A DNA stretch of 64,000 bases, from the sequence record OQ708376.1; one strand, given 5' to 3'. Shown here piece by piece: positions 44,760-62,664 of this stretch. The stretch is from Escherichia phage vB_EcoM_CRJP21. The notes under the pieces are model-generated. The model made no database searches, was not told where the DNA came from, and saw only the letters and a program-made list of their open reading frames with translations. Positions within the stretch are counted from its first letter, which is position 1. Each line of letters begins with the position of its first letter. Both the position numbers and the translations under genes were made by a program.

Positions 44760-45384
44760 AAAATTTTATTTTGTTTTTTCCAATAGTTCCCCTACCGCGT
44801 GGGGATAGTTTCCCCGCAGTATCTGGTGTTAGATTTTTCTGAATCTGGAATCATTATCTTATAAACTGGGGGCAATGTCAACGGCCTGGCCGGATATTTT
44901 TAAAAATTTTTTCAGTACTGAATTTTGGGCGTAACTATGCACCCGGTGGGCTTGAGTCTTTCTCGACTTGATGGAACTATTATACAGTACTGGAAAAATA
45001 AAGCAATACCCTGGAAGCAAAAAAGTTTTAATTAATTTGCTTGCTATCCTGGGCCGGACTATGGTACTATATTTCAGTACTGAGAAAGTGCGTTTACCTG
45101 CTAGGGTGCGGGAGTGTATCCTTTTTTTATATCTTGAATTTTGGACGGATCTTCCCACCCCCTGGGGTATCCGCTTTCTCGCGTCTATGTAGTAATTATA
45201 CGCTTTTTCAGGATCAAGTCAATACCTAAAAACAAAATAATTGAAAATAATTTAACGCGTTTAAACGGCCTGTAAAGCCCTGGAATGATTGGAATGGTGC
45301 AAATGTATAGCTTATGTGTATTAATGCGTTAGAATGCGTCTGAGGACGTTTTACGGGGTATAGGGATGATTTAGTGGATTGATT

Positions 45385-45471
45385 CAGTACTGAATAATAG
45401 TACTCCTATATAGAAAGATAGTTCCCCTGGATGATTGCAGTACTGAATAATAGTACTCCTATATAGAAAGA
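45385..45471. repeat. 34 bp direct repeat x2 (CAGTACTGAATAATAGTACTCCTATATAGAAAGA) separated by 19 bp
   Basis: two identical copies at 45385-45418 and 45438-45471. Confidence 0.8.
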
Positions 45472-45502
45472 AAACTATTTTAAAAGTATTTGTAGAAAGT
45501 AC

Positions 45503-45561
45503 TTGCACCGTACTGATAAAAGCGTATAATGTTTTACATCGAGAGCGGGAACACTTCCCGC
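45503..45561 (+). promoter_or_regulatory. promoter (TTGCAC-N16-TATAAT) + 5' stem-loop AGCGGGAAC-N-TTCCCGCT
   Basis: first of about 25 promoter/5'-hairpin cassettes. Confidence 0.6.
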
Positions 45562-45585
45562 TACACATTAAGAGAGATTAAAACG

Positions 45586-45948
45586 ATGGCGACTCAAATC
45601 AATAAAATCATGCTTAACCTGGTAAACTTCCGCGATGAGATGAAAGGTCTTCCGGCTGAAACTGTAAAAATTCACATTGCAGCTTATCGGGAACTTATTG
45701 CAATGTTGCCGCTTAAGCGTGAACAATACGCCGCTACTTTGATGCTGGATTCAATGATCCATATAATGATCTCAAATGATTTGACGATGGTTTATCAGTA
45801 TATGGGCGAAAATTTCGCGGTGTGTAGTAAGCCAGTACCAGGGATGGCAACAACTGAGGAATTGCACGGCTTAAACTTAAAACAAGATGCATGGGATAAT
45901 ATGCCTCGTTTCCTGGTATGGGCTGACAGTGGCAAAATTTACAAATAA
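45586..45948 (+). CDS. hypothetical protein (120 aa)
   Basis: ORF track 45529-45948; ATG 45586 downstream of promoter and hairpin. Confidence 0.55.
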   Translation: MATQINKIMLNLVNFRDEMKGLPAETVKIHIAAYRELIAMLPLKREQYAATLMLDSMIHIMISNDLTMVYQYMGENFAVCSKPVPGMATTEELHGLNLKQDAWDNMPRFLVWADSGKIYK

Positions 45949-45962
45949 GTTTAATAAAGTAC

Positions 45963-46021
45963 TTGCAAACTATGTTTAATGGCGTATAATGTTTTACATC
46001 AGGTGGGGAATAGTTCCCCAC
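45963..46021 (+). promoter_or_regulatory. promoter TTGCAA-N16-TATAAT + 5' stem-loop GTGGGGAA-TAGT-TCCCCAC
   Basis: consensus hexamers; hairpin at predicted +5 to +25. Confidence 0.6.
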
Positions 46022-46041
46022 TATATAAGAGGATTAAAAAA

Positions 46042-46281
46042 ATGGCTAAATCAAAAATGTTCTTAGGTCACAAAAACAAAACTCATTGGAATGTAAGCCT
46101 TTGGATTAATAACGATGAGGGATTGTATCGGTTGGCCCAGGACTTTATTAACGATAGCACTAATCGCAATGATGCGGCCCGTCATATGATGTTATTTTTA
46201 GAACAGACTGGACAAGATAAAACACCGGACGGATTCAAATATAGCACTACTGCGATCCGTGCGGCGATGGTTGGAATGTAA
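46042..46281 (+). CDS. hypothetical protein (79 aa)
   Basis: ATG 46042 after GAGGAT. Confidence 0.55.
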   Translation: MAKSKMFLGHKNKTHWNVSLWINNDEGLYRLAQDFINDSTNRNDAARHMMLFLEQTGQDKTPDGFKYSTTAIRAAMVGM

Positions 46282-46291
46282 TAGAATTTAT

Positions 46292-46330
46292 TTAAAGTAC
46301 TATCATTTTTTTGCGATAGTACTTTATAAT
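46292..46330 (+). promoter_or_regulatory. palindrome-containing promoter-like element (AAAGTACTATC-N10-GATAGTACTTT then TATAAT)
   Basis: inverted repeat + -10 hexamer; no good -35. Confidence 0.4.
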
Positions 46331-46367
46331 AGTGTTTTATTCATACACCAACGATAAGGGCAACAGC

Positions 46368-46634
46368 ATGAAAATTAAGTATTTTGCGACGCGTGAACAA
46401 GCTCGGATCGCCGCACGCCAGGACGGGGCAACGTTTAAAGATATGGGCGTACAATCGGAACGTGGTAAACGTTGGGCCATTGTAAAGCGTAGTACCGCCA
46501 GATCATTACAGTACTGGTTAGCGGCCTTAAAAAGTCCCGATAGTGTATCGCGTCGAGTGGTAGAAATAAAGCTCGACCGAAAGGGCAACCGCGTGACCGT
46601 GTACCGTACTAAAAAGATTGCAGTACTTGAATAA
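46368..46634 (+). CDS. hypothetical protein (88 aa); paralog of 58345-58740
   Basis: MKIKYFATREQARIAARQDGATFKDMG vs MITKFYATREAARIVAREEGAAFKDMG. Confidence 0.6.
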   Translation: MKIKYFATREQARIAARQDGATFKDMGVQSERGKRWAIVKRSTARSLQYWLAALKSPDSVSRRVVEIKLDRKGNRVTVYRTKKIAVLE

Positions 46635-46642
46635 AAAGTACT

Positions 46643-46700
46643 TGCAAACTATGTTTAATGGCGTATAATGTTTTACATCGAGAGCGGGAACTCTTCCCGC
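46643..46700 (+). promoter_or_regulatory. promoter TTGCAA-N15-TATAAT + 5' stem-loop GCGGGAAC-N-TTCCCGC
   Basis: near-identical to cassette at 45963. Confidence 0.6.
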
Positions 46701-46721
46701 CTATAACCTGGAGTAATGAAA

Positions 46722-46952
46722 ATGACTAATATGTATATGACTGAAGTTAAAACCGTAAAAGATACTACCACGAATAAAACTACTTACTTACAGCGGATCT
46801 GTGGTGTATGGCAACGTATCAGCAAATCAAAGTACTTTAAATTAACATCATATGCAAACCGTTCGGATTCATTCAGTACTGAAATAAAAGGTAATAAAGT
46901 ACACCAATACGGCACTTATTATTATTATAGCCTGGACGCGATTGCAGTATAA
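46722..46952 (+). CDS. hypothetical protein (76 aa)
   Basis: ORF track 46716-46952; ATG 46722 has better spacing from GGAG. Confidence 0.5.
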   Translation: MTNMYMTEVKTVKDTTTNKTTYLQRICGVWQRISKSKYFKLTSYANRSDSFSTEIKGNKVHQYGTYYYYSLDAIAV

Positions 46953-47202
46953 GCAGTTTACAAATCTTTACAATTGCCGGTATTGACTTATTTTGTCAGT
47001 ACTGGCATAATGTATTCATTGGCAGATAAGCCGTAGCCCATAGGGTGCGGGAGTGTATCTATAGAAAAATTAGTTTAGTATAGTTACAATTGTGCACCCG
47101 GTGGGTTAGCTGTTGTCATGGGGTATATTATACCAGTACTTGATAATGCTGTCAATACTTTTTTTTTACTATTCAGTACTGAAAACTATTTTTAAAAAGT
47201 AC

Positions 47203-47348
47203 TTGCAAACTATGTTTAAAGGCGTATAATGTTTTACATCAGGACGGGGAACGAAATAAGTAACTTCCCGTTAAGTAGCCCAGGAGTAAGGCACACGAAA
47301 AACTCCCCTGATAAAATAGTTTGACAAATGTTTTTAAAAGCGTATAAT
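47203..47348 (+). promoter_or_regulatory. tandem promoters (TTGCAA..TATAAT and TTGACA..TATAAT) flanking about 80 nt structured leader
   Basis: two consensus promoters about 118 bp apart; leader holds CGGGGAAC...CCCCG-type hairpins; second copy at 57123-57267. Confidence 0.55.
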
Positions 47349-47380
47349 ACTTACATCAACTACTGAATGAGGGTTACAAA

Positions 47381-47992
47381 ATGAAAACTATCACTACTAC
47401 TACTTATGTTATGGCTTTTTCTGAATTGAACGCAGAACAACAAACGTCAGCTATCGAACTGGTTCGGGAACGTGAAAAAAACTCAAACGACAATTATTTT
47501 TCTGAAAGTGAAATTGAATACTATAAAGAAACAGTACTACCGGAATATGGCATTAATGACGCTGAAATACAATTCAGTGGTTTTTGGTCCCAGGGTGACG
47601 GTGCATCAATCAGTACTGACCACGTTGACGCAGTGAAGTTTTTACGCAAGGTAAGAGCATTAACTAAGTATCGCTCAATCCGTCACTTGCTGAATGAAGA
47701 TGATTTGGCGATGAGTGTAAAACGTTCGCACTCCCACTACTCGCATGAGAATACTGTAAGCGGGTACATTGAATCGGCTTACACTGATTTAACCGCAAAA
47801 CAAGAAACGTTAGTTAATGAGCTTGAGGAACTACTCACTGAAACTATTCGTGAATTGTCCCGCAAGTTGTACCGTGATTTAGAGAATGCATATGAGGATC
47901 AATTCACTACTGAAAACATTACGGCACTGATTGAGGGTAACGAATATCAATTCAATGTTATTGATGGCGTAGTAGAATCAATCGAATATTAA
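47381..47992 (+). CDS. hypothetical protein (203 aa)
   Basis: ORF after tandem promoter element; GAGGGT RBS. Confidence 0.6.
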   Translation: MKTITTTTYVMAFSELNAEQQTSAIELVREREKNSNDNYFSESEIEYYKETVLPEYGINDAEIQFSGFWSQGDGASISTDHVDAVKFLRKVRALTKYRSIRHLLNEDDLAMSVKRSHSHYSHENTVSGYIESAYTDLTAKQETLVNELEELLTETIRELSRKLYRDLENAYEDQFTTENITALIEGNEYQFNVIDGVVESIEY

Positions 47993-48005
47993 TTTAAAAA
48001 GTACT

Positions 48006-48075
48006 TGCAAACTAAGTTTAAAAGCGTATAATACTTTATATCGAGAGCGGGAATAGTTCCCGCTACTAATGAGGA
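48006..48075 (+). promoter_or_regulatory. promoter TTGCAA..TATAAT + 5' stem-loop AGCGGGAATAGTTCCCGCT
   Basis: cassette architecture. Confidence 0.6.
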
Positions 48076-48084
48076 ATACTACAA

Positions 48085-48249
48085 ATGAATACTTTTACCT
48101 TCGCTCAATTGAACGCCCTGGATGTATTGTCTGATGCTTTGCGGGATGCAACTGAAAGCGGTTTATTTGACAATGTTGACATTCACCCTGATGTAATTAA
48201 TAATTTTTGTGATGCTATCGCAGAAGTACTGGAAGATCTAAAAAAATAA
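48085..48249 (+). CDS. hypothetical acidic protein (54 aa)
   Basis: GAGGAAT RBS after promoter/hairpin cassette; below track cutoff. Confidence 0.45.
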   Translation: MNTFTFAQLNALDVLSDALRDATESGLFDNVDIHPDVINNFCDAIAEVLEDLKK

Positions 48250-48258
48250 TAGAAAGTA

Positions 48259-48319
48259 CTTGCAATTAGTTTTCAGTACTGTATAATGGTTTACATCAAA
48301 GGGAGAAATGGTTCTCCCT
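48259..48319 (+). promoter_or_regulatory. promoter TTGCAA-N18-TATAAT + 5' stem-loop GGGAGAA-ATGG-TTCTCCC
   Basis: cassette architecture. Confidence 0.6.
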
Positions 48320-48337
48320 GGTAATGAGGAAAATACA

Positions 48338-48559
48338 ATGGCTAATATCACTACTCTTTCCCAACTGGAAGCACTGGTTAAATCTATGCGGGAACATGCT
48401 GACAAAATCGGCGTACAAGATCCAGCCGTTTGCTTCTGCGACGAATTGAATGATGATACCCTGGTAATAGCAGAAGTCCAGGACGTTTCTAACTATTCCT
48501 CGCGTTACACTGGCGGCGTAGCAAATAAAGGTGACTTCTGTTTATACCTTACAAAATAA
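48338..48559 (+). CDS. hypothetical protein (73 aa)
   Basis: ORF track 48308-48559; ATG 48338 after GAGGAAAAT. Confidence 0.55.
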   Translation: MANITTLSQLEALVKSMREHADKIGVQDPAVCFCDELNDDTLVIAEVQDVSNYSSRYTGGVANKGDFCLYLTK

Positions 48560-48563
48560 CAAC

Positions 48564-48593
48564 GCGGGGAGATAATAACTCCCCGTTACTTTT
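48564..48593 (+). terminator. intrinsic terminator (CGGGGAG-N-CTCCCCG + T-run)
   Basis: hairpin + TTACTTTTT. Confidence 0.6.
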
Positions 48594-48727
48594 TCAGTAC
48601 TGAATCATTTAATAGACGGATCTCGGCACCCGGTGGGTTAGTGACTGTTTCGTCTTGATGTAGTAATTATGCCAGTACTGGATGCACTTGTCAACAATTA
48701 TTTTCCAAATACTTTTTATTAAAATAC

Positions 48728-48783
48728 TTGCAATTAGTTTTTAAACGCGTATAATGTTTTGCATAGGGGGAGCGGTTCCCCTG
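48728..48783 (+). promoter_or_regulatory. promoter TTGCAA..TATAAT + 5' G-rich stem-loop
   Basis: cassette architecture. Confidence 0.55.
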
Positions 48784-48802
48784 GTAACTAAGGAATAATA
48801 AA

Positions 48803-49039
48803 ATGCTTGAACAAATCAAATCAACGTCTTCGAATGTAACGGGAACGGTAGCACACTTTACTAGTGATGAATCGCGGGGCGTTCCCTATTGTGCTGTACA
48901 TGTAAACACTGAGGGTAACTACTGGTTTACGGTTTACGGATCATATTCATTTGGACGGCCTGGACATCAAAAAATTCTGGATAAAGTACAACCAACGGGT
49001 AAAAATATCACTGCCGAAATGTTTTATAAAAAATCATAA
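48803..49039 (+). CDS. hypothetical protein (78 aa)
   Basis: AAGGAAT RBS. Confidence 0.55.
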   Translation: MLEQIKSTSSNVTGTVAHFTSDESRGVPYCAVHVNTEGNYWFTVYGSYSFGRPGHQKILDKVQPTGKNITAEMFYKKS

Positions 49040-49044
49040 AGTAC

Positions 49045-49103
49045 TTGCAATTAGTTTTTAGTACTGTATAATATTTTACATCGCAAGGGGAAACGGTTTC
49101 CCC
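49045..49103 (+). promoter_or_regulatory. promoter TTGCAA-N16-TATAAT + 5' stem-loop GGGGAAAC-GG-TTTCCCC
   Basis: cassette architecture. Confidence 0.6.
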
Positions 49104-49123
49104 TGGTAACTAAGGATAATCAA

Positions 49124-49423
49124 ATGAAAATTGCAATCATCGCCCTGGCTTTATCTGTTTCCTCTTTCGCTGTTAATGCGTCATTAGATGTAAGTAGTGA
49201 AAAATTCATTCAGTGCACTGTTGCAATGACCGATGAAAGAACTGGCGAGATTGTATTAAAGGATTTAGAGATCCAGCCGGAAGCATTTAAAAACGGCCCG
49301 TTCCATGAAGAAGACGAAAACGGTAGCACGACAATTTATTATGATGCCAGTACTAAACGCGGTTCGGTCACTGTAATGGATACCGAGAAAGTAACTCATA
49401 CCGGCGTTATTAATTGCCGTTGA
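49124..49423 (+). CDS. secreted protein (signal peptide)
   Basis: N-terminus MKIAIIALALSVSSFAVNAS. Confidence 0.55.
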   Translation: MKIAIIALALSVSSFAVNASLDVSSEKFIQCTVAMTDERTGEIVLKDLEIQPEAFKNGPFHEEDENGSTTIYYDASTKRGSVTVMDTEKVTHTGVINCR

Positions 49424-49444
49424 TAGATACTACGGGGTAACATC

Positions 49445-49675
49445 ATGACTAAGCGAATTGTTTTACTTAACGAAAGCAGTACTACACAACTACTTAACGC
49501 CGTGCATTATGATATTGAAACGAGCGTTAATCTTATCAGTACTGTAGTTCTGTTGGACACTGGAAAGGTAGCCAATGATAAAGCGATTGCAGGTATACTA
49601 ACGGATCTTGTGCCTGGTAGCAGTGCACCAATAACGTTAAATGGTAAAGTGTTTAATATTTTACTCACTGATTAA
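49445..49675 (+). CDS. hypothetical protein (76 aa)
   Basis: ORF in track; GGGG-rich RBS. Confidence 0.45.
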   Translation: MTKRIVLLNESSTTQLLNAVHYDIETSVNLISTVVLLDTGKVANDKAIAGILTDLVPGSSAPITLNGKVFNILLTD

Positions 49676-49681
49676 GTACAT

Positions 49682-49709
49682 AGCCCACCTGGTGGGCTTT
49701 TTTGTTTTT
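49682..49709 (+). terminator. intrinsic terminator (AGCCCACC-TGGT-GGGCT + T-run)
   Basis: hairpin + T6GT5. Confidence 0.7.
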
Positions 49710-49757
49710 GTAGTATCGTAGTACTGAGATACTTTGAAAATAGTTTTAAAAAAGTAG

Positions 49758-49785
49758 TTGACATTACCACAGAAAAGCGTAGAAT
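49758..49785 (+). promoter_or_regulatory. promoter TTGACA-N16-TAGAAT with about 120 nt leader
   Basis: hexamers read; long leader before ATG 49909. Confidence 0.5.
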
Positions 49786-49908
49786 GTATTACATCAAGAC
49801 GGGGAGCACTAAGTAGACCGCCAGTAAGTCGAACGAAAAACTGGACACGTCGAGAAAACTTTGATACACTAATAAACGTAAACTAAACTTTAATTGAGGA
49901 TTTATAAA

Positions 49909-50391
49909 ATGGCTAATGTAAAATCATTCATCAAAGCACTGGTAGCAAATGAAACTAACGTCGCGGCTGAGATCCTGGCTGAACTGGATAACGATACCAT
50001 GAAAGCGGTACGCAACAATTTTAACATTGCGTACAGTGAAGCTAAAGAACTGCAAGCCAAAAAGGTAGCAGAACTGGAAGAACAGAAAAAAGCCCGTGAA
50101 GCAGAACTACAAGCAACAATTGAAAGTATTCAGGCGGCAGTGTCTGGATTGGATCTGGAAGTGGTTGTAGAAATGGCACATAAAGCCCTGGCGGTTAAGT
50201 ACGGTGAAGATAAGCCGGAATCTAAACCTAAAAAATGGATTCAAGAACGTGTTACTGTAGTACTTGATAACGGTGAAGAACATTTGATTCCTGTACGCGG
50301 TAACTGCATTGCGGTAGTACTGGACGCTATCAAAGAAAGCGGTATGACTCGCGAGGAATGGATCGAAGCTCATCGCAAAGTTGAAGCATAA
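49909..50391 (+). CDS. hypothetical protein (160 aa)
   Basis: ORF track 49894-50391; ATG 49909 after GAGGAT. Confidence 0.55.
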   Translation: MANVKSFIKALVANETNVAAEILAELDNDTMKAVRNNFNIAYSEAKELQAKKVAELEEQKKAREAELQATIESIQAAVSGLDLEVVVEMAHKALAVKYGEDKPESKPKKWIQERVTVVLDNGEEHLIPVRGNCIAVVLDAIKESGMTREEWIEAHRKVEA

Positions 50392-50412
50392 CAATTAAAG
50401 TACTGAATCACT

Positions 50413-50439
50413 AGCCCACCTTAAACAGTGGGCTTTTTT
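50413..50439 (+). terminator. intrinsic terminator (AGCCCAC-N-GTGGGCT + T6)
   Basis: hairpin + T-run after gene stop. Confidence 0.7.
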
Positions 50440-50593
50440 GTGTCTGTAGTATTCCAGTCCACCAGCACCGCCTAGAATCGATTCTAACGCATTAAACTGA
50501 TTATCTGATACATCGCCCTAGCTGGTGGCGTTAAGGTCGTTAGAATGCGATTGAGAGCGTTTAAAGTATTTTGCAAAAAGTAATAAAAAGTAC

Positions 50594-50655
50594 TTGCACG
50601 ATTAAGAGATTAGCGTATAATGTTTTACATCGAGAGGGGGAAACGGTTCTCCTTC
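50594..50655 (+). promoter_or_regulatory. promoter TTGCAC..TATAAT + 5' stem-loop
   Basis: cassette architecture. Confidence 0.55.
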
Positions 50656-50676
50656 CAAATCAAAGGAATCAAAACA

Positions 50677-50904
50677 ATGGCTATTATCATTACTCGCGTA
50701 TCTGGTACTACTGGCAACGAACAAGTAGTTGCAGTCATTACTAACAAGGCAGGTGCGGAATTGCAAAATGCAATGAATACCTGGGCCGTTAATGAGTTCG
50801 GTCAGTGGGCAAGTGTAGCATACATTGAAACCTATCAAGTGCCGTCGATTAGTTTAACTGATTTGGGCGTTGAGCGTATCCTTTGCCTGGATGAATTAAA
50901 TTAA
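50677..50904 (+). CDS. hypothetical protein (75 aa)
   Basis: ORF track 50620-50904; ATG 50677 after AAGGAAT. Confidence 0.55.
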   Translation: MAIIITRVSGTTGNEQVVAVITNKAGAELQNAMNTWAVNEFGQWASVAYIETYQVPSISLTDLGVERILCLDELN

Positions 50905-50913
50905 AAAAAGTAC

Positions 50914-50973
50914 TTGCAAAGTAAATCGAATAAAGTATAATACATTACATCAAGGGGAGAAATGATTCTCCCC
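50914..50973 (+). promoter_or_regulatory. promoter TTGCAA-N16-TATAAT + 5' stem-loop GGGGAGAA-ATGA-TTCTCCCC
   Basis: cassette architecture. Confidence 0.6.
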
Positions 50974-50990
50974 ACTACAAGGAAACTAAA

Positions 50991-51203
50991 ATGGCTATCA
51001 TTACTAAAATCAAAGTTAACAAGACTATCGTTAAACTGGCAGAAGTGAAAGAAGGTTATAAAGTATCTTGGTGCGGTATGTATCGGACGTTCGCAGATAT
51101 AGATGATGCGATCAATTATTACAGTGACACGGTTAAAAACTTTGTTCGTGCTGATGTGGTTATGGCAGTGGCAACATATAAAGCAGCGAAAGAAAGTAAG
51201 TAA
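50991..51203 (+). CDS. hypothetical protein (70 aa)
   Basis: AAGGAAAC RBS. Confidence 0.55.
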   Translation: MAIITKIKVNKTIVKLAEVKEGYKVSWCGMYRTFADIDDAINYYSDTVKNFVRADVVMAVATYKAAKESK

Positions 51204-55636: not shown

Positions 55637-55638
55637 TA

Positions 55639-56254: not shown

Positions 56255-56260
56255 AAACTA

Positions 56261-56320
56261 TTGACAAGATAATCTAGTACTGTATAATAAGTTACATGAA
56301 GGGGAGAAATGATTCTCCCC
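56261..56320 (+). promoter_or_regulatory. promoter TTGACA-N17-TATAAT + 5' stem-loop GGGGAGAA-ATGA-TTCTCCCC
   Basis: cassette architecture. Confidence 0.6.
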
Positions 56321-56337
56321 ACTGAGAGGAAAGAAAA

Positions 56338-56550
56338 ATGCAAGGTCAACTAATCGTTCGTAAATGGTCTGATACTAACGCTAAACCGTGGGATGTACAA
56401 TACATCGGACCGGATGGGGTATCACGTTATCAGCCTGGCGTAACGCATAGTACTGAGCAATATGCCGCCGCTCACCGCGAACGCCTGTTAGAATCCATGA
56501 AACAGGGATACGGTGAAAAATTCATTCAAGATCATTGGCTGAAAGATTAA
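56338..56550 (+). CDS. hypothetical protein (70 aa)
   Basis: GAGAGGAAAG RBS. Confidence 0.55.
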   Translation: MQGQLIVRKWSDTNAKPWDVQYIGPDGVSRYQPGVTHSTEQYAAAHRERLLESMKQGYGEKFIQDHWLKD

Positions 56551-56567
56551 TATAAGGAGTACAGCTT

Positions 56568-56660
56568 ATGCAAATGAATCCGATGATTATTGTTTTAGCT
56601 GTACTTATGATCATTCATGCAATAGTAGAAGTATTAACGCAATCAGGAGTAATAAAATGA
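56568..56660 (+). CDS. putative membrane micro-protein (30 aa)
   Basis: AAGGAG N8 ATG; hydrophobic; speculative. Confidence 0.3.
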   Translation: MQMNPMIIVLAVLMIIHAIVEVLTQSGVIK

Positions 56661-56830
56661 TTCAAGTAGAATTATCAGTACTGAAAGATCTGTTTTATCG
56701 GTTAGGTACTACTGGCGAGTATCCTAAAAGTGATACCGCAAAACTTTTTGTATCACTCGACTTATGGCAACGCGAACAATTAGTAATGTCCTGGCGTAAA
56801 GGTAAAGCAGATAGCGAGGTGAAAGCATGA
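56657..56830 (+). CDS. hypothetical protein (57 aa)
   Basis: ATGA overlap; AGGAG upstream. Confidence 0.35.
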   Translation: MIQVELSVLKDLFYRLGTTGEYPKSDTAKLFVSLDLWQREQLVMSWRKGKADSEVKA

Positions 56831-56976
56831 AAGAATTCTTATTCGAAGTAGTGTTTCAAGGTGTCGGTAGTAACCAACTGATTCGCTCAAGTGGTTACAA
56901 TGTTAACCAGGCATGGAATAACATTAAACAAATGTACCCGAACGCTATCACCTATCGCAACCCGAAACAAGTTTAA
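56827..56976 (+). CDS. hypothetical protein (49 aa)
   Basis: ATGA overlap; ends just before terminator element. Confidence 0.35.
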   Translation: MKEFLFEVVFQGVGSNQLIRSSGYNVNQAWNNIKQMYPNAITYRNPKQV

Positions 56977-56990
56977 AAATAATTGAAAAA

Positions 56991-57026
56991 GGGATTGACT
57001 CCGGTCAGTCCCTTTGCTATTATATA
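56991..57026 (+). terminator. bifunctional terminator/promoter element (GGGATTGAC-TCCG-GTCAGTCCC)
   Basis: hairpin; TTGACT-N17-TATTAT; identical copies at 60261 and 62519. Confidence 0.6.
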
Positions 57027-57122
57027 CGCATAGAAACAAATCAGCCCACAGGGTGCATAAATGTATCTATTGTTTGCTGGTGGCTAGTACTGAAAACTAT
57101 TTTTAAAAAAGTACTTGCATTG

Positions 57123-57267
57123 TACTTAGAATCAAGTATAATGTTTTACATCAGGACGGGGAACGAAACAAGTAACCCCGTTAAGTAGTCCAGGAGTAAG
57201 ACATAAGAAAACCTCCCCTGATAAAATAGTTTGACAATAGAAAGTAAACGAGTATAATACTTACATC
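57123..57267 (+). promoter_or_regulatory. tandem promoters flanking about 80 nt structured leader (second copy of 47203-47348 element)
   Basis: near-identical to 47203-47348. Confidence 0.55.
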
Positions 57268-57291
57268 AACCACTGATAAGGAAACATTAAA

Positions 57292-57567
57292 ATGCGGATT
57301 CTACTGACAGCTAACGAAATCGAACAAGTACTGACTACTAACCTGGAAGACTGGAAACGTGAAGCAGATATCCAGGCGGTTCAACGGCTTAACGATGAGT
57401 TAACGCCGGATGACTTAAGCAAGATTGTAGATCCTCAATTCTACGAAGATATCCACGACACCGCGTTAAGCGTCGAGGATGTACTAGATAAGCACTACAT
57501 TGATATTGATTTGCAGGTTTACGGTCGTAAAAACTTTATCACTATTCACGACATTTACAATAATTAA
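57292..57567 (+). CDS. hypothetical acidic protein (91 aa)
   Basis: AAGGAAAC RBS. Confidence 0.55.
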   Translation: MRILLTANEIEQVLTTNLEDWKREADIQAVQRLNDELTPDDLSKIVDPQFYEDIHDTALSVEDVLDKHYIDIDLQVYGRKNFITIHDIYNN

Positions 57568-57570
57568 GTA

Positions 57571-57630
57571 TTGACAAAGTATCTTAGTACTGTATAATAG
57601 TTTACATCGAGAGGGGGAATGGTTCCCCTC
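57571..57630 (+). promoter_or_regulatory. promoter TTGACA-N17-TGTATAAT + 5' stem-loop GAGGGGGAA-TGG-TTCCCCTC
   Basis: cassette architecture. Confidence 0.6.
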
Positions 57631-57653
57631 CTAACAAAGAGAGAGAAATAAAA

Positions 57654-57836
57654 ATGGCTAAATGCACTATCTGTAAGAAAGAAATCGTATTAGTTCCAAG
57701 TGCCCGTGAACGTGCCGCTCGGTTCGGTGGCAAAGCGTCAGACTATACAAAAATGTTTACTACCCATGCAGCTTGCCAGGTAGCAAAACGTTCACAAGAA
57801 AGCGTAGAATTAATGCGTAAACTTTCCAAAAAATAA
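57654..57836 (+). CDS. hypothetical basic protein (60 aa) with CTICKK...HAAC cysteines
   Basis: AGAGAGAGA RBS-like. Confidence 0.5.
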   Translation: MAKCTICKKEIVLVPSARERAARFGGKASDYTKMFTTHAACQVAKRSQESVELMRKLSKK

Positions 57837-57839
57837 GTA

Positions 57840-57900
57840 TTGACAAAGTATCTTAGTACTGTATAATAGTTTACATCAAGCGAGGGGAATGGTTCCCCTC
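57840..57900 (+). promoter_or_regulatory. promoter TTGACA-N17-TGTATAAT + 5' stem-loop (duplicate of 57571 cassette)
   Basis: near-identical to preceding cassette. Confidence 0.6.
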
Positions 57901-57925
57901 CTAACTAAAAGAGAGAGAAATAAAA

Positions 57926-58249
57926 ATGGCTATGATCCTTACCCAGAAAGTAGAACTGAAAATTGTAACCTCCTTTGACATTAAAGTTAATCGCTGGACT
58001 GATCGGAACGGTAACACTTACCACTCTTGCTACGTGTCCGCGTTAATTGGCGACCGCTGGGAAGACTTGGGACATGAAACCTTTACTTACGGTTACGGTA
58101 CACAAGGAGAATACACGGGCTTGGAGATCATTAAAGAAACCGTTATAGGTTTCAACCCGAAAGAAAAAGTTATTCACCGCATCGAAAAAGAGATTAACAA
58201 AGAAATAACAGTTCGCTACTACGATGTAAAACGTAAGAAAGACATGTAA
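57926..58249 (+). CDS. hypothetical protein (107 aa); paralog of 51295-51618
   Basis: shared motifs as noted. Confidence 0.6.
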   Translation: MAMILTQKVELKIVTSFDIKVNRWTDRNGNTYHSCYVSALIGDRWEDLGHETFTYGYGTQGEYTGLEIIKETVIGFNPKEKVIHRIEKEINKEITVRYYDVKRKKDM

Positions 58250-58261
58250 TAGAATCCATTT

Positions 58262-58300
58262 AAAGTACTATTTGACATTGCCCAGATAGTACTTTATAAT
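58262..58300 (+). promoter_or_regulatory. palindrome-containing promoter (AAGTACTAT-TTGACA-...-ATAGTACTT TATAAT)
   Basis: TTGACA-N17-TATAAT with flanking inverted arms. Confidence 0.55.
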
Positions 58301-58344
58301 AGACTCTAACTTGTAGTACTAACTCAACTAATAGGATGTATACC

Positions 58345-58740
58345 ATGATTACTAAATTCTACGCTACCCGTGAAGCTGCCCGTATTGTTGCACGCGAGGA
58401 AGGAGCAGCATTTAAAGACATGGGCAAAGATGCACCGAAAGGTCAACGCTGGGCCGTACAGTTCAAAGAAATCTCTGATATCGTGAATTCACCGGAGCCA
58501 GTACTAACAGCAGCAGAACTAAAACGAGCGGATTTACTGGCGGCAGTACTTAACGCACAAGATGAATTTATCGCTGATTCTGATATCAAAGTACAGACAA
58601 ACCATACCGCTTGGACTCACGCGGATCACCTGGCAAACCTTAAGCGTCCAAGTGAACTGGTTCGCAACCAGAAAGAGATCCGACACGACCGTAAGGGTAA
58701 TCGTGTAACAGTATACAGTAAACGCCGCCAGGTTATCTAA
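58345..58740 (+). CDS. hypothetical protein (131 aa); paralog of 46368-46634
   Basis: ORF track 58336-58740; ATG 58345 matches paralog N-terminus. Confidence 0.55.
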   Translation: MITKFYATREAARIVAREEGAAFKDMGKDAPKGQRWAVQFKEISDIVNSPEPVLTAAELKRADLLAAVLNAQDEFIADSDIKVQTNHTAWTHADHLANLKRPSELVRNQKEIRHDRKGNRVTVYSKRRQVI

Positions 58741-58762
58741 TAACTTGCAGTACTAACAACAC

Positions 58763-58788
58763 GGCGGGATCAGTTCCCGCCTTTTTTA
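58763..58788 (+). terminator. intrinsic terminator (GGCGGGA-N-TCCCGCC + T6)
   Basis: hairpin + T-run. Confidence 0.7.
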
Positions 58789-58802
58789 TAGGATAAACTA
58801 AA

Positions 58803-59057
58803 ATGATTAAGGTACAACTATCTAAAGATAATATCTTGCGGGTACACTATAAAGCACCACAGAGAATCATCACAAAGGCCGTACAGCTTGCTAATGAGTT
58901 TATTAATGGTAACCTATTACCAAGGAAGTTAAGCAACGGAAAACTGCGTGTAATCGATGTAGACACTAACAACAGAATAGTAATTGAGAACACAGGAAAG
59001 ATAAACCTATATGAACACCAACAATATAATAAGAAAATAAAACTAATATCACGTTGA
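58803..59057 (+). CDS. hypothetical protein (84 aa)
   Basis: ORF in track. Confidence 0.5.
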   Translation: MIKVQLSKDNILRVHYKAPQRIITKAVQLANEFINGNLLPRKLSNGKLRVIDVDTNNRIVIENTGKINLYEHQQYNKKIKLISR

Positions 59058-59110
59058 CAGTACTCAATTGTTTTAGTACTATGTACATATACCAACACGG
59101 GAGAAACAAA

Positions 59111-59329
59111 ATGAAATTATCTAAAATCGAAAAGAAAACTATTGATGAAGCAGTTAAGCACGGTTATACCTTTCGTAATGATTCACATTTTACCAATTTT
59201 CAACAAGGGTATCGTACTATTAAAAAACTCATTGACAAAGGTTTATTAGTTGAAGTCAATAACGGCAATGGTATTGAGTATCAACCAACACAAGACGCAT
59301 TTTATTTTAAGAAATATAATATTATCTAA
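59111..59329 (+). CDS. hypothetical protein (72 aa)
   Basis: ORF track 59054-59329; ATG 59111 after GGGAGAAAC. Confidence 0.5.
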   Translation: MKLSKIEKKTIDEAVKHGYTFRNDSHFTNFQQGYRTIKKLIDKGLLVEVNNGNGIEYQPTQDAFYFKKYNII

Positions 59330-59387
59330 TTGACAGTACTCAAATGTTTTAGTACTATATGTACATACCAACACGGGGAAAAACAAA

Positions 59388-59630
59388 ATGATTACTTTAG
59401 AAAAACGTATCAAAGAAACTACATCGCTGGTGGAACTGTTAACAGTACTGAAATGCCGTACTACTCGGTTTAGTACACCGGACTTTATTAATATGGTTGA
59501 TGTTAATGGTCGCTATCGTATCACGGTCGAACAAGGAGCGGCGAAAGTATTCAGTACTAAAAACACTAAGGAAGTGATTCACGCTGTAAGTGTTAAAAAA
59601 GTAGTTGCCATTGATAGTAAAGTACTGTAA
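59388..59630 (+). CDS. hypothetical protein (80 aa)
   Basis: preceded by near-duplicate of the 59055-59110 intergenic. Confidence 0.5.
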   Translation: MITLEKRIKETTSLVELLTVLKCRTTRFSTPDFINMVDVNGRYRITVEQGAAKVFSTKNTKEVIHAVSVKKVVAIDSKVL

Positions 59631-59661
59631 GATAGTTTCATTAACTCAAGGAGAACATGCA

Positions 59662-60246
59662 ATGCGTAATTATACTAAATTCATCCGTACCCTGTCAGAA
59701 ATGGAAACCAACAAAGAGATCCTTTCAGCTTGTCGGTTAGCTGGTCTGGAGATCATCGGTGCGGGTTCTTCCCGTATTGTATTCGCTTTAAATGATCGGT
59801 TAGTGATTAAGGTCGCGAATTGTGATGCGGGTGTAGAACAAAATGAAACTGAATGTAAGGTATGGAATTTTTTAGATTATGACCGCCCTCAATTGAAACA
59901 GTACTTTGCAAAGGTGCATATGCATTTATGCGATCCTGATAATATGTTTATCGTTATGGATCGGTTGAGTACTGCAAGTAAAGGCAGTGTAAAGCACGTA
60001 AACGCGTGCAATGAATTAAAGTACAATATTAAACGTAATGCCATTGAACGCCAGCACCGCTTTGCTGATGCACTACAACACGTTGATGATACATTATCAA
60101 CACTAACGATAAGAGATATCAGAAAACAGAATATCGGCCAGGATCGTAATGGCCTTATTAAAGTACTTGATTACGGTTTAACCCGCAATATCTGGAATCA
60201 GTACTATAAAAAGCGTGATGTAGAAGCAAGTAAGGTAACACGATAA
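59662..60246 (+). CDS. small protein-kinase-like protein (G-loop GAGSSRIV, VIKV, RDIRKQN, DYG)
   Basis: ORF track 59605-60246; ATG 59662 after AAGGAG; kinase subdomain motifs in canonical order. Confidence 0.45.
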   Translation: MRNYTKFIRTLSEMETNKEILSACRLAGLEIIGAGSSRIVFALNDRLVIKVANCDAGVEQNETECKVWNFLDYDRPQLKQYFAKVHMHLCDPDNMFIVMDRLSTASKGSVKHVNACNELKYNIKRNAIERQHRFADALQHVDDTLSTLTIRDIRKQNIGQDRNGLIKVLDYGLTRNIWNQYYKKRDVEASKVTR

Positions 60247-60260
60247 AAAAGATTAAAAAA

Positions 60261-60296
60261 GGGATTGACTCCGGTCAGTCCCTTTGCTATTATATA
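60261..60296 (+). terminator. bifunctional terminator/promoter element
   Basis: GGGATTGAC-TCCG-GTCAGTCCC; TATTAT downstream. Confidence 0.6.
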
Positions 60297-60387
60297 TTCA
60301 TTGAGAGATAACTCACTGACCCATAGGGTGCGGAAGTGTATCTATTATATAAGTATTCAGTACTGAAAACTATTTTTAAAAAAGTAC

Positions 60388-60448
60388 TTGCATTGTACTT
60401 AGAATCAAGTATAATGTTTTACATAGAGAGGGGGAAATGGTTCTCCCT
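60388..60448 (+). promoter_or_regulatory. promoter TTGCAT..TATAAT + 5' stem-loop
   Basis: cassette architecture. Confidence 0.6.
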
Positions 60449-60467
60449 GGTAATAAGGAATAAAATC

Positions 60468-60689
60468 ATGACTACAATGACTTGCATTTACGCTTCCAAT
60501 CTTCTGAATGATGCGGCCTTTAATGTTGATTCAGAATATCAATGTTATCGGGATGAAAATAAAAAAGTTTTTGTAGTTGATAATAATGGTTTCCATATTG
60601 AATTACAATCCGGTTTCACTGGTGTTGATGGTAAATCAGTGTGGGGCGTACAGGATGATAAAGGCACATATCATTTTAAACGTAATTAA
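60468..60689 (+). CDS. hypothetical protein (73 aa)
   Basis: ORF track 60336-60689; ATG 60468 after AAGGAAT. Confidence 0.55.
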   Translation: MTTMTCIYASNLLNDAAFNVDSEYQCYRDENKKVFVVDNNGFHIELQSGFTGVDGKSVWGVQDDKGTYHFKRN

Positions 60690-60693
60690 GTAT

Positions 60694-60751
60694 TGACAAA
60701 GTATATCAGTACTGTATAATAGTTTACATCAAGGGGAGAATAGTTCTCCCC
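60694..60751 (+). promoter_or_regulatory. promoter TTGACA-N15-TGTATAAT + 5' stem-loop GGGGAGAA-TAG-TTCTCCCC
   Basis: cassette architecture. Confidence 0.6.
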
Positions 60752-60773
60752 GATACTAAAAGGAAACAAAATT

Positions 60774-61046
60774 ATGTCCAGCTACTCCGCTACTATGATC
60801 ATTAAAGATATGAACGGTAATCCTACTTCTGCTGGTGGATCATTTGGAAACATTAATTTAGATGGTCGGTTATCCATGCAATCAGCCATCGATGCAGCGA
60901 AAGAAGTTTTTAAGAATGAATGTACTGTTAGTAAGATGGATTATATGGGATTCGCTATCGAGAAAACTAATCGTTTTGTGAACTACAAAAATCCACTGAT
61001 GATTGATACTAACCTGAAAGCTAACGAAGTGGGGTACTTATTATGA
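60774..61046 (+). CDS. hypothetical protein (90 aa)
   Basis: AAAGGAAAC RBS. Confidence 0.55.
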   Translation: MSSYSATMIIKDMNGNPTSAGGSFGNINLDGRLSMQSAIDAAKEVFKNECTVSKMDYMGFAIEKTNRFVNYKNPLMIDTNLKANEVGYLL

Positions 61047-61234
61047 CAGTAGAAGAAGTTAAAAAAGTACTGGCAGTACTACGCTATCATAATCATTGCA
61101 AGGTGAAGAATGATCCTGATTATGTTGATTCATCCCTGGAGGAAGACACATTAAACGCAATAAGCCATATGCAAACATTAGCAAAGCGTATGACCGAAAA
61201 GAATAGACCGGACTATATCGGAAATAAAATTTAA
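61043..61234 (+). CDS. hypothetical protein (63 aa)
   Basis: ATGA overlap. Confidence 0.45.
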   Translation: MTVEEVKKVLAVLRYHNHCKVKNDPDYVDSSLEEDTLNAISHMQTLAKRMTEKNRPDYIGNKI

Positions 61235-61242
61235 AAAGTACT

Positions 61243-61302
61243 TGCATTGTAGTTAGATTAACGTATAATGTTTTACATAGAGCGGGGGAATAGTTCTCCC
61301 GC
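61243..61302 (+). promoter_or_regulatory. promoter TTGCAT..TATAAT + 5' stem-loop
   Basis: cassette architecture. Confidence 0.6.
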
Positions 61303-61320
61303 CAGTCCAGGAGATACACC

Positions 61321-61584
61321 ATGAACACTATCGAAATCACTATCAATGCACACGTATACGACAACGTAGTACTGCAAACTACTATGACCGCTAATGATAC
61401 CAGTACTTTGCGGAATACCGTTGTAAGTGCTGTATGTGCTGCAATCGGTGATGTAGCCCTGGAAAATGCAGAACACATCAACAACGGTTTCACTATGTGC
61501 AAACGTGATAACGCAAAACATATCATCTTAGAAGGTTACGGCGGTGTAGAATATAATCTTTATATGAAAAAAGTACTTGCATAA
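61321..61584 (+). CDS. hypothetical protein (87 aa)
   Basis: AGGAGAT RBS. Confidence 0.55.
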   Translation: MNTIEITINAHVYDNVVLQTTMTANDTSTLRNTVVSAVCAAIGDVALENAEHINNGFTMCKRDNAKHIILEGYGGVEYNLYMKKVLA

Positions 61585-61632
61585 TAACTAAAACAAAGTA
61601 TAATGTTTTGCATAGGGGGAGATATCCTCCCC
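61576..61632 (+). promoter_or_regulatory. promoter TTGCAT..TATAAT + 5' stem-loop GGGGGAGA-TAT-CCTCCCCC
   Basis: overlaps 3' end of upstream gene. Confidence 0.55.
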
Positions 61633-61651
61633 CACTAAAAGGAGTAATAAA

Positions 61652-61876
61652 ATGGCTAACTTTGATGAACTGATGCGGGAAGTAGCTAACCTGGCAGAAG
61701 AGAAGAAATCATTCGATTCTATCTATAACACCGCTCACCGTGATTCAGTACTGGCATGTACTCAGGATCAAAAAGATGAACTAATCGCCACCTATCATGA
61801 AGCATGGAAGTACTACCGACAATGGGAGAAAGAAGAAAGTGAGTCTACCATTGACGGCCTCAATAATCTAATCTAA
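61652..61876 (+). CDS. hypothetical protein (74 aa)
   Basis: AAGGAGT RBS. Confidence 0.55.
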   Translation: MANFDELMREVANLAEEKKSFDSIYNTAHRDSVLACTQDQKDELIATYHEAWKYYRQWEKEESESTIDGLNNLI

Positions 61877-61887
61877 AAGTTTTATTT

Positions 61888-61923
61888 CAGTACTATTGAC
61901 ATAGCTTGATAGTACTGATGTAA
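61888..61923 (+). promoter_or_regulatory. palindrome-containing promoter (AGTACTATTGACATAGCTTGATAGTACT)
   Basis: same architecture as 51227. Confidence 0.5.
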
Positions 61924-61952
61924 TAACTTTACTAACTACAAGGGGAAACATA

Positions 61953-62210
61953 ATGGAACAGTTCACACAATATCGGGTAAATCCTCAAGCTATGGCCTAC
62001 GTAGAAGACCATAAAACATTACCAGTACTGCAACCAGTTAAAGGCCATATCTATCGTGCTATGTCGTGGAGTACTGCACAGGATGGATATAAAACCGTTG
62101 CCGTGGGTATGTATTGCGGGAATGGTGAATGGTTTGATCCAAATAATCCGGTAGCCATTGACAGTACTGAAAAAATGAAATGGGCCGACTACATCGAAGA
62201 TATTTCATAA
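61953..62210 (+). CDS. hypothetical protein (85 aa)
   Basis: AAGGGGAAAC RBS. Confidence 0.5.
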   Translation: MEQFTQYRVNPQAMAYVEDHKTLPVLQPVKGHIYRAMSWSTAQDGYKTVAVGMYCGNGEWFDPNNPVAIDSTEKMKWADYIEDIS

Positions 62211-62216
62211 AACTAT

Positions 62217-62280
62217 TTGACAGTACTAACCAGTAATGTATAATGTTTTACATAGAGCGGGGGAATAGTTCTCCCGTCAA
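62217..62280 (+). promoter_or_regulatory. promoter TTGACA-N16-TATAAT + 5' stem-loop
   Basis: cassette architecture. Confidence 0.6.
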
Positions 62281-62299
62281 TAGTTTGGAGTAAAACATT

Positions 62300-62500
62300 A
62301 TGTCTATCGCTATCGCCCTGGTTGAAGTACTGAAAGAAGCTAAAGCCAACCTTATCGATGTACAGATTAAGGAATTACAAAATGGTTTAATCGGCTGTAC
62401 TTGTACCGCTGGTGGAGCGGCAGACTATCGGGAATTCGAATCACTTGAATCGATGGTCCGTTATCTTACCATGATCGTAGAAGATTGGAGAATCATCTAA
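62300..62500 (+). CDS. hypothetical protein (66 aa)
   Basis: GGAGTAAAAC RBS. Confidence 0.5.
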   Translation: MSIAIALVEVLKEAKANLIDVQIKELQNGLIGCTCTAGGAADYREFESLESMVRYLTMIVEDWRII

Positions 62501-62518
62501 CAAAAAAGAATAAAAAAA

Positions 62519-62554
62519 GGGATTGACTCCGGTCAGTCCCTTTGCTATTATATA
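62519..62554 (+). terminator. bifunctional terminator/promoter element
   Basis: GGGATTGAC-TCCG-GTCAGTCCC; TATTAT downstream. Confidence 0.6.
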
Positions 62555-62664
62555 CTCATAGACAAAAACTAGCCCACTGGGTGCAGGAGTGTATCTAAAA
62601 TATATAGTTAATAACGGTGAGTAACTATCTGCTGGTGGGGTGAAAACTATTAATAAAAAAAGTA

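Follow-up and report, generated by a model that had tools for sequence, protein, structure and literature searches.

A promoter-proximal motif in the terminal repeat of RaK2-like jumbo phages very probably encodes a structured RNA element

Introduction

A short motif recurs eleven times in the last third of a 64,000-nucleotide stretch of DNA from Escherichia phage vB_EcoM_CRJP21 (sequence record OQ708376.1), referred to throughout as the window. We conclude that the motif is very probably the core of a transcribed, structured RNA element, a module of about 45 nt that is encoded directly behind a distinct set of sigma-70 promoters in the direct terminal repeat (DTR) of RaK2-like jumbo phages. 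The element is a conserved RNA family without a match in Rfam or in the literature that we searched. As for its function, we tentatively propose that it may act in cis, as a co-transcriptional leader switch. The ~21-kb terminal repeat of RaK2-like jumbo phages carries tiny genes without assigned function, the presumed drivers of host takeover. On the regulation of this repeat, the papers that we consulted offer nothing beyond the mention of 'RpoD-like promoters'.

Results

A repeated motif within the terminal repeat

A sequence-only reading of the window had reported a repeated non-coding motif towards its right-hand end. The repeat is real: allowing up to one mismatch, CCCAYAGGGTGC matches nine times where 0.11 matches are expected, and none of 100 shuffles reaches nine. 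CCCAYNGGGTGC likewise has nine exact matches (chance expectation about 0.1), all of them in 44939-62584. The cores start at 47037, 53023, 54689, 57045, 60320 and 62573 on the plus strand and at 44939, 47094 and 48626 on the minus strand, within 0-10 nt of the positions first given for them. A further site, near 45097, does hold a copy, albeit one with a degenerate core (CCTGCTAGGGTGC, plus strand, 45097-45109) instead of the standard one; its tail hairpin is a terminator (45103-45122) followed by T7. What had been taken for an inverse motif, CACCCGGTGGG at 44940, 47095 and 48627, marks genuine sites, at which the same motif lies on the minus strand. The trailing GTATCTAT-like sequence also exists, with differences in some copies. 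A covariance model, described below, adds a second degenerate copy on the minus strand (45141-45186, core CCCAGGGGGTGG). The total is thus 11 copies, all at 44.9-62.6 kb within the ~21-kb DTR; in window 1-43800, neither the motif search nor the covariance model finds any.

Where does the terminal repeat lie within the window? Positions 44000-64000 match Asteriusvirus (RaK2-like) jumbo coliphages, with fEgEco12 as the top match (95.7% identity), and in the alignment fEgEco12 position 152 corresponds to window 44000. The fEgEco12 DTR measures 20,993 bp, as determined by PhageTerm and restriction mapping (PMC13070987). Taken together, the alignment and the mapped repeat place the left physical end near window 43849 and imply that the DTR extends beyond the window end. 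The GC skew changes sign at ~44 kb of the window, and the record of vB_Ec-M-J has a DTR annotated at 1-21525. The DTR portion is filled with many small plus-strand open reading frames (ORFs), with a near-consensus sigma-70 promoter for each. A scan for tRNA and tmRNA found none. Pfam searches with 20 of the ~42 DTR ORFs gave no matches other than DUF7249, HVO_A0114 below threshold and a DksA/TraR zinc finger; RNA-binding and antitermination domains were absent from these 20.

Linkage to a class of sigma-70 promoters

Regular-expression copies were drawn from seven sources, namely the window, fEgEco12, RaK2, CBB, GAP32, Munch and Hallingskeid. In 68 of the 69, a -35/-10 pair lies on the same strand, with the -10 box ending 21-29 nt before the core. 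The initial impression that the motif stands just downstream of a terminator/promoter element is therefore borne out, with the added regularity of a fixed distance to a sigma-70 promoter. The companion claim that the motif is orientation-independent does not hold, since every copy is co-oriented with its own upstream promoter.

We scored promoters by their match to consensus, requiring TTGACA-like -35 and TATAAT-like -10 boxes 16-18 bp apart and placing start sites by geometry. Ten of the 11 window copies have 9-12 of 12 hexamer matches, and several of these add a TG extension. For the degenerate copy near 45097 the promoter is weak (TTGCTA-18-TACTAT), with 8 of 12. Promoter-like sites of such quality number about 107 per 20 kb on both strands, from which we infer that the linkage is not a matter of chance. 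Because the distance from -10 box to core is fixed, the core would be transcribed from about +15 to +23. Judged by consensus, these are apparently strong sigma-70 promoters of the form TTGACW-17-TG-n-yATwAT, with the module encoded from +1 to about +48. In every relative that bears the element, they stand out as a distinct group among the strongest early promoters; in the sequence scanned they are confined to the ~21-kb DTR, the immediate-early region of small genes. A second and commoner class, AAAACTATTTTTAAAAAGTACTTGCAA-16-TATAAT or TTGACA-16-TATAAT with an A/T-rich block upstream, precedes most small genes and never bears the element (for example at window 47203-47230, 48005-48032 and 53090-53117).

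Four window copies have their -35 box within a 12-bp hairpin (AAAGGGATTGACTCCGGTCAGTCCCTTT) that, seen from upstream, is the terminator of the preceding gene. These terminator-promoter fusions (52961-52988, 56988-57015, 60258-60285 and 62516-62543) combine the hairpin with a T-rich run, the left arm carrying the -35 box TTGACT. Equivalent fusion hairpins are present in RaK2, CBB, GAP32, Munch and Hallingskeid.

Two hairpins and an alternative helix

From 5' to 3', the module of ~45 nt comprises 2-4 unpaired nucleotides, a first hairpin (P1), a YUAR linker, a second hairpin (P2), GC, rgARrU and a tail, G-Y-R-U-C-Y. P1 starts 2-4 nt from the inferred 5' end. It is a hairpin of 3-5 bp with a purine-rich loop of the G..A type, 4-9 nt long, and comes in several sequence types; its stems vary while pairing is kept (GGAG/CUCC, GGAA/UUCC, GCCA/UGGC, ACCG/CGGU and AGCA/UGCU).

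A covariance model was built from a seed of 14 hand-picked sequences with 100% pairing, and returned 74 hits in ~241 kb and 40 in IMG/VR loci, 114 copies in all. Over 70 distinct sequences the pairing of P1 amounts to 92.6%, and over a second, independently drawn set to 87.5%. Double-sided changes occur in 4 of 4 pairs, none of 500 shuffles attains the observed covariation score, and slid registers score far lower. The alignments of P1 and P2 were made by the covariance model and are hence biased towards its structure; RNAalifold, applied to the first alignment with no structure supplied, returns the same P1 and P2. Three window copies (47094, 57045 and 62573) are missing the P1 stem and retain P2/P3 and the tail. 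P2 consists of R-CCC, a loop of 3 or 4 nt and GGG-U, and is nearly invariant, with 96-99% pairing. Double changes from C-G to U-A are found at CBB 16131 and L022:4523, and the window copy at 45097 has CCU/AGG.

What, then, constrains the tail? Over 105 distinct copies it reads U38 (90%), Y40 (100% pyrimidine), R41 (100% purine), U42, C43 and Y44. Since G alone can pair with either pyrimidine and U alone with either purine, the pattern points to a partner 5'-GGGUG-3', and the 3' half of the core, which does not vary, has this very sequence. The corresponding helix, P3, joins positions 27-32 to 39-44; its pairing is 90.5% and 85.7%, against 33-63% out of register. Each G is paired as G-C or G·U and U30 as U-A or U·G, with Y40 facing G31 and R41 facing U30; rare double changes convert C32-G39 to G-C and U30-A41 to C-G. 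P2 (CCC:GGG) and P3 (GGGUGC:GYRUCY) are mutually exclusive, with G27-U30 as their common strand. As the 5' strand of P3 is also part of P2, CCC and YRUCY would compete for GGGUG. In ViennaRNA folds P2 is preferred in 74 of 107 copies and P3 in 17, from which we conclude that the P2/P3 module would behave as a weakly biased toggle. At least five U in the 7 nt after P3 are found in 8 of 107 distinct copies and also at window 45103-45122, and these are true terminators; a U-tract is missing in ~92% of copies, which rules out P3 as a general terminator.

The G·U variation, the tolerance of loop length and the compensatory changes indicate an RNA element rather than a site in duplex DNA. The sequence-only reading had left the choice between a protein-binding site and a structured RNA module. 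The latter is supported by P1 covariation, P2 loop tolerance and wobble in the tail, and the same data disfavour a protein site in duplex DNA.

Several other interpretations of the module were discarded. The 5' leader (AUAG) could pair with the tail (CUAU) in a closing stem, and the P1 loop with the tail (AGAUA:UAUCU) in a pseudoknot, but in some copies only, and neither pairing shows covariation (judged partly by eye). For a mini-ORF starting at the NUG at model positions 37-39, the Shine-Dalgarno-like GGAG leaves no gap to the codon, and the frame is not kept between copies. A CsrA-type hairpin loop fails because GGA lies in the P3 loop in only about half of the copies. A his-type hairpin pause (G-10, Y-1, R+1) is possible but less likely: its geometry fits positions 31, 40 and 41, yet its +1 would mostly be A and P3 accounts better for all five tail positions.

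Distribution among phages

RaK2-like phages that infect Escherichia, Klebsiella, Salmonella, Cronobacter, Pectobacterium and Erwinia carry the element, as do IMG/VR contigs of 345-378 kb. It is kept across several phage genera despite diverged flanks. All hits in the seven annotated sources fall inside the DTR or its equivalent, and none in the flanking sequence scanned. Discrete P1 types (such as AGCAAGAACAAUGCU and AUAGCAAGAACAAUGCU) are identical across genera, in RaK2 (23945), CBB (10220, 17427), GAP32 (12859, 19410), Munch (982) and Hallingskeid (16628, 28823), where the downstream genes are non-orthologous and the flanks differ. This argues either for selection on the sequence of P1 in addition to its pairing, or for exchange between phages.

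Outside this group, no homologue was found in the scanned part of the PA5oct terminal repeat, which includes its two non-coding RNAs (record 7000-24000; covariance model with filters off, best hit 7 bits, E ~2), and blastn against 5,426 complete E. coli genomes gave no match to the element. Across 185,579 species genomes, a pattern scan returned 63 single matches, which is chance level; they lie in unrelated taxa, and Enterobacterales have none. The covariance-model hit that scored best in species genomes falls in apparent coding sequence and has no promoter. Rfam 15 had no family match anywhere in the window at gathering thresholds, and in E-value mode gave five weak hits in 44800-63000, none on the element. 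A full-text literature search for six 12-mers recovered only chance primer matches. The papers on CBB, fEgEco12 and PA5oct, which do describe promoters or terminal repeats, make no mention of the element.

The copies in the window and their surroundings

The leftmost copy is on the minus strand, with the promoter TTGCTT-16-TATAAT (~45006-44979) ahead of an element at 44970-44925 by the model (core 44950-44939; whole unit 44925-45006). It is directed at the left physical genome end, and a second minus-strand promoter (44881-44853) comes after it. Both promoters fire into 44560-44760, a non-coding tract ~0.7-0.9 kb from the left physical end that is made of degenerate tandem repeats (units of 8, 16, 24 and 48 nt; GACGGCTAAACGGCTAGATGG-like) and also repeats a 17-nt GGATTTTGGGCGTAGTTAC/GATATG motif.

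The degenerate plus-strand copy, which occupies 45041-45129 together with its weak promoter, has P1 at 45077-45091 and the P2-like CCU/AGG hairpin at 45097-45105. Its P3 (AGGGUGC/GUAUCCU, 45103-45122) is followed by U7 and constitutes an intrinsic terminator, so that a self-contained RNA of ~52 nt is predicted. Convergent on it is the degenerate minus-strand copy (45141-45222), with the promoter TTGACT-16-TATAAT at 45222-45195 and the element at 45186-45141.

A convergent pair with standard cores follows. Its left member (plus strand, 46983-47062) has the promoter TTGACT-17-CATAAT with TG and an element at 47018-47062 (core 47037-47048); its right member (minus strand, 47080-47155) has the promoter TTGACA-17-TATAAT with TG at 47155-47127 and an element without a P1 stem at 47114-47080 (core 47105-47094), and the two core starts are separated by 57 nt. 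The next copy is a solitary minus-strand unit (48555-48694) composed of a promoter (48694-48666), an element (48657-48612, core 48637-48626) and a terminator hairpin (48585-48565). This intrinsic-terminator hairpin starts 51 nt past the core, and the predicted RNA is ~105 nt long.

The remaining five copies are on the plus strand. In the unit 52961-53048, the terminator hairpin holding the -35 box (52961-52988) overlaps the promoter (52968-52996) and precedes the element (53003-53048, core 53023-53034); beyond it lie another promoter (53090-53117) and then a gene (53169-53510). The unit 54632-54714 has the promoter TTGACA-17-CATAAT with TG and an element at 54669-54714 (core 54689-54700) with the tail variant GUAACUGU, and downstream of it lies the gene for the DksA/TraR zinc-finger protein (54959-55216). 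Just past this element, at 54722-54760, is a TGATCA/GATC cluster, TGATCAAAAAATGATCTGATCAATACTTGATCAA; other copies carry AGTACT there. Three further units have the same fused arrangement of terminator hairpin, promoter and element: 56988-57070 (hairpin 56988-57015, promoter 56995-57023, element 57030-57070, core 57045-57056), in which the P1 stem is missing and GAAACAA is retained; 60258-60345 (hairpin 60258-60285, promoter 60265-60293, element 60300-60345, core 60320-60331); and 62516-62598 (hairpin 62516-62543, promoter 62523-62551, model hit 62564-62598, core 62573-62584), which is without a P1 stem.

The motif had also been called always non-coding. Against the fEgEco12 annotation this is true, with the qualification that two tiny ORF calls start in or beside an element. 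Such calls begin at the NUG in the tail (model positions 37-39) or next to the element and cross the following promoter (window 60336-60689; fEgEco12 16836-16955, g045, and 3278-3388, g05), and they are probably spurious.

What follows the element

Plus-strand copies in the window lead, 50-170 nt on, to a second promoter with a gene behind it or directly to a gene (57045 and 60320, where no second promoter scores at least 10 of 12). Several copies in CBB and GAP32 stand 78-110 nt before a start codon with no second promoter detected, a placement that supports use as a putative leader. The genes downstream of copies are mutually unrelated with one exception: the P1 type UGGC-AGAUAA-GCC stands before an orthologous gene of ~200 aa in the window (47381-47992), CBB (CBB_42) and GAP32 (GAP32_035). 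A duplicated gene cassette is thus ruled out by the unrelated downstream proteins.

Solitary minus-strand copies in five genomes (window 48626; RaK2 14818, 21886; CBB 10234; Munch 3322, 12015; Hallingskeid 12367) have a terminator hairpin that begins 45-52 nt past the core, and RNAs of ~105-115 nt are accordingly predicted for them. Downstream of several elements lies TACTGTACAAATAAACAG (Munch near 3290 and 11985; Hallingskeid near 12340, 16690, 19550 and 28890), which we take to fit the spacing of a LexA box, CTGT-N8-ACAG.

Convergent pairs are found in the window (47018-47125), in CBB (988-1096, 3798-3906 and 20820-20928) and in GAP32 (3769-3877, 6598-6706 and 22879-22987). In most pairs of Asteriusvirus and Mimasvirus the cores are 57 nt apart (77 nt in GAP32 6598/6675), and in Munch and Hallingskeid they are 68-75 nt apart. 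The pairs are imperfect palindromes of ~100 bp with no ORF within, and either transcript is antisense to the leader of its partner. Read through, the window pair folds into a single hairpin of ~45 bp (-42.7 kcal/mol, z -5.3). Convergent pairs lie ~1 kb from the left physical end, and in CBB another lies ~1.6 kb from the right boundary of the DTR.

Other sequence features of the region

The palindrome AGTACT occurs 280 times in the 64 kb, against ~21 expected from base composition, with 150 occurrences in 1-43800 and 130 in the DTR part (for example at 44188, 44228, 47174, 48595 and 60358). It is about as frequent inside long ORFs as outside (128 of 280 in ORFs of at least 90 aa), and is also seen in promoter spacers (cAGTACTGgCATAAT), immediately before -35 boxes (AGTACTTGCAA) and 10-35 nt past the tails of elements. 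CAGTACTG has 59 occurrences. The Chi sequence, GCTGGTGG, is found on the plus strand nine times in the ~20 kb of DTR (44438, 50521, 54346, 55808, 57076, 59426, 60831, 62408 and 62631) versus twice in the other 43.8 kb; its complement is present at 44426 and 50459 only. Chi in this orientation is recognised by RecBCD entering from the right, and the enrichment suggests end protection of the right-hand repeat copy.

Discussion

How might the element work? We envisage the module as a promoter-proximal leader that acts as RNA. P1 would be close enough to the 5' end for end protection, and CCC, GGGUG and YRUCY would make up a three-strand toggle like those in attenuators and expression platforms. 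A conserved factor, be it RNA polymerase, an RNA-binding host protein or a phage protein made early, would probably read the near-invariant face of P2 and the adjoining GC, and this reading would set the fate of the transcript through pausing, through termination or read-through, or through decay.

A number of observations weigh against such a leader switch. About a third of the copies oppose the genes around them and run into a terminator after ~50 nt or face a partner copy, an arrangement that a leader explains less well than an RNA product does. Most window genes have strong promoters of their own, so that antitermination is not obviously needed. Parts known from antitermination systems were sought and not found: the boxA consensus (YGCUCUUWA) has no match on either strand of 43800-64000, boxB of the lambda/P22 kind (a 5-bp stem with a GNRA-like pentaloop) is absent, a crude scan of plus-strand ORFs of at least 30 aa in 43800-64000 gave no N-like N-terminal arginine-rich motif, and the RfaH ops sequence GGCGGTAGYRTG is absent from the window. 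The toggle itself is open to objection. By ViennaRNA, P3 wins in a mere 17 of the copies; near-invariance of P2 and of the 5' strand of P3 leaves the support for P3 mostly as one-sided variation; in the variant L022:5436, G31 is changed to U without compensation; and the large majority of copies are without a U-tract after P3.

Does the element belong to a known type of RNA signal? Like lambda nut and HK022 put, it is a small hairpin RNA signal just downstream of early sigma-70 promoters, present in multiple copies and both directions in a terminator-rich phage early region. Its P1 loops resemble those of lambda boxB in being purine-rich and in mostly starting with G and ending with A, and two hairpins lie next to its promoter; an HK022 put RNA would in addition act on RNA polymerase in cis without protein factors. 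The hairpins of the element are presumably much smaller than those of put, and their sequence different; moreover, nut and put are without its invariant P2 and the P3 alternative. With attenuators, including the antisense-RNA-controlled ones of pT181 and pIP501, it shares a three-strand logic in which CCC and YRUCY compete for GGGUG, a second helix that is a real terminator in a minority of copies and, in the convergent pairs, an antisense relation between leaders. Unlike attenuators, it mostly has no U-tract after P3, is multi-copy and stands before unrelated genes or none. It resembles nut and put in position and an attenuator in logic and, on the features compared, has the defining ones of neither.

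Could the copies instead be genes for short immediate-early RNAs that act in trans, as small RNAs, decoys or sponges? Promoter plus module would then be a small RNA gene, the P2/P3 scaffold would bind or titrate a conserved host or phage protein, the P1 types would give specificity, and copies at mRNA 5' ends would join the pool or be processed off. This is the main rival of the leader switch, and we regard it as possible though somewhat less likely. The features of a small-RNA gene (own promoter, no ORF, Rho-independent terminator placed for an RNA of 50-300 nt) are present in the solitary minus-strand copies of five genomes and in 45076-45129, which with a few others would stop directly after P3 at ~52 nt; the convergent pairs contain no ORF either. 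At least ten copies per repeat, with the repeat twice per genome and near-consensus promoters, would suit such a role, as would the same P1 sequences before non-orthologous genes in five phages. The terminal repeat of PA5oct encodes two highly expressed non-coding RNAs, ncRNA001 and ncRNA002 (PMC7318152). The parallel lies in non-coding RNA within the long DTR of a related jumbo phage, abundant in PA5oct; these RNAs are 236-451 nt long and not homologous to the element. Most plus-strand copies, however, are without a terminator and enter a promoter or a gene, and mutually exclusive helices such as P2 and P3 are more typical of cis switches. No host RNA or site was found that the element might mimic: E. 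coli blastn and the species-genome pattern scan revealed no related host sequence, and local alignment to the E. coli I-E/I-F CRISPR repeats scored 4-6, which is chance level.

A protective or processing tag, with a 5' hairpin that counters RppH/RNase E decay or a mark for phage-directed cleavage and no effect on transcription, appears unlikely. The nearness of P1 to the inferred 5' end suits it, and Emory, Bouvet and Belasco reportedly described in 1992 such proximity as the geometry needed for stabilisation by a 5' hairpin. As in a stabiliser of the ompA 5' untranslated region type, the hairpin is 2-4 nt from the 5' end and its pairing is conserved while the stem sequence is free; the ~45-bp duplex of a convergent pair would also be long enough for RNase III. 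End protection leaves unexplained why 47094, 57045 and 62573 have dispensed with the P1 stem and kept P2/P3 and the tail. The 12-nt near-invariance and the P2/P3 alternative would be superfluous for it, and the conserved P2/P3 and tail have no counterpart in the ompA-type stabiliser.

That the element serves the DTR as DNA, through cruciforms or through R-loop or primer sites for replication, recombination or end protection, with transcription only opening the DNA, we consider very unlikely. Such a role would agree with the confinement to the terminal repeat, with the position of convergent pairs close to the left end and, in CBB, to the right DTR boundary, with a G-rich RNA segment (GGGUGCGGAG) followed by AT-rich DNA, and with the Chi enrichment in the same region. 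The strict promoter distance and co-orientation speak against it, and the G·U variation in P3, like the alternation of A-U with G·U at the P2 base, is sensible in RNA only. Still more improbable is an operator or roadblock in duplex DNA, to which a protein of phage or host would bind near +20 to +32. Twelve nearly invariant base pairs at a fixed distance from a promoter could be such a site and could shut off early promoters, but the sequence is asymmetric with no dyad, a 1-nt length change between the CCC and GGG halves is tolerated, CCC/GGG doubly changes to CCU/AGG, and the adjacent P1 covaries. Chance similarity, or a functionless relic of a recent duplication of promoter cassettes, might account for promoter-proximal sequence common to the copies of one genome, and can be dismissed in view of the nine matches where 0.11 were expected, the conservation across several genera with diverged flanks, the compensatory changes and the unrelated downstream genes.

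What would the element mean for these phages? Gene calls that begin within it can be corrected. The element offers a concrete, mutable handle on immediate-early transcription or RNA fate, 45 nt with three strands to mutate and compensate, and a compact, portable promoter-plus-leader part for E. coli. A bolder and, in our view, doubtful idea is that it represents a novel class of phage immediate-early RNA, in which a constant P2/P3 scaffold binds a protein or the polymerase, a few strictly conserved P1 types are interchangeable, and a conserved host machine is neutralised or reprogrammed. Candidate machines would be RNA polymerase as it elongates or terminates, an RNase or RNA chaperone, or a sensor in host defence. 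If this were true, more than 20 promoter copies per genome would produce it in large amounts within the first minutes of infection, and the element would be an RNA-based arm of host takeover by jumbo phages.

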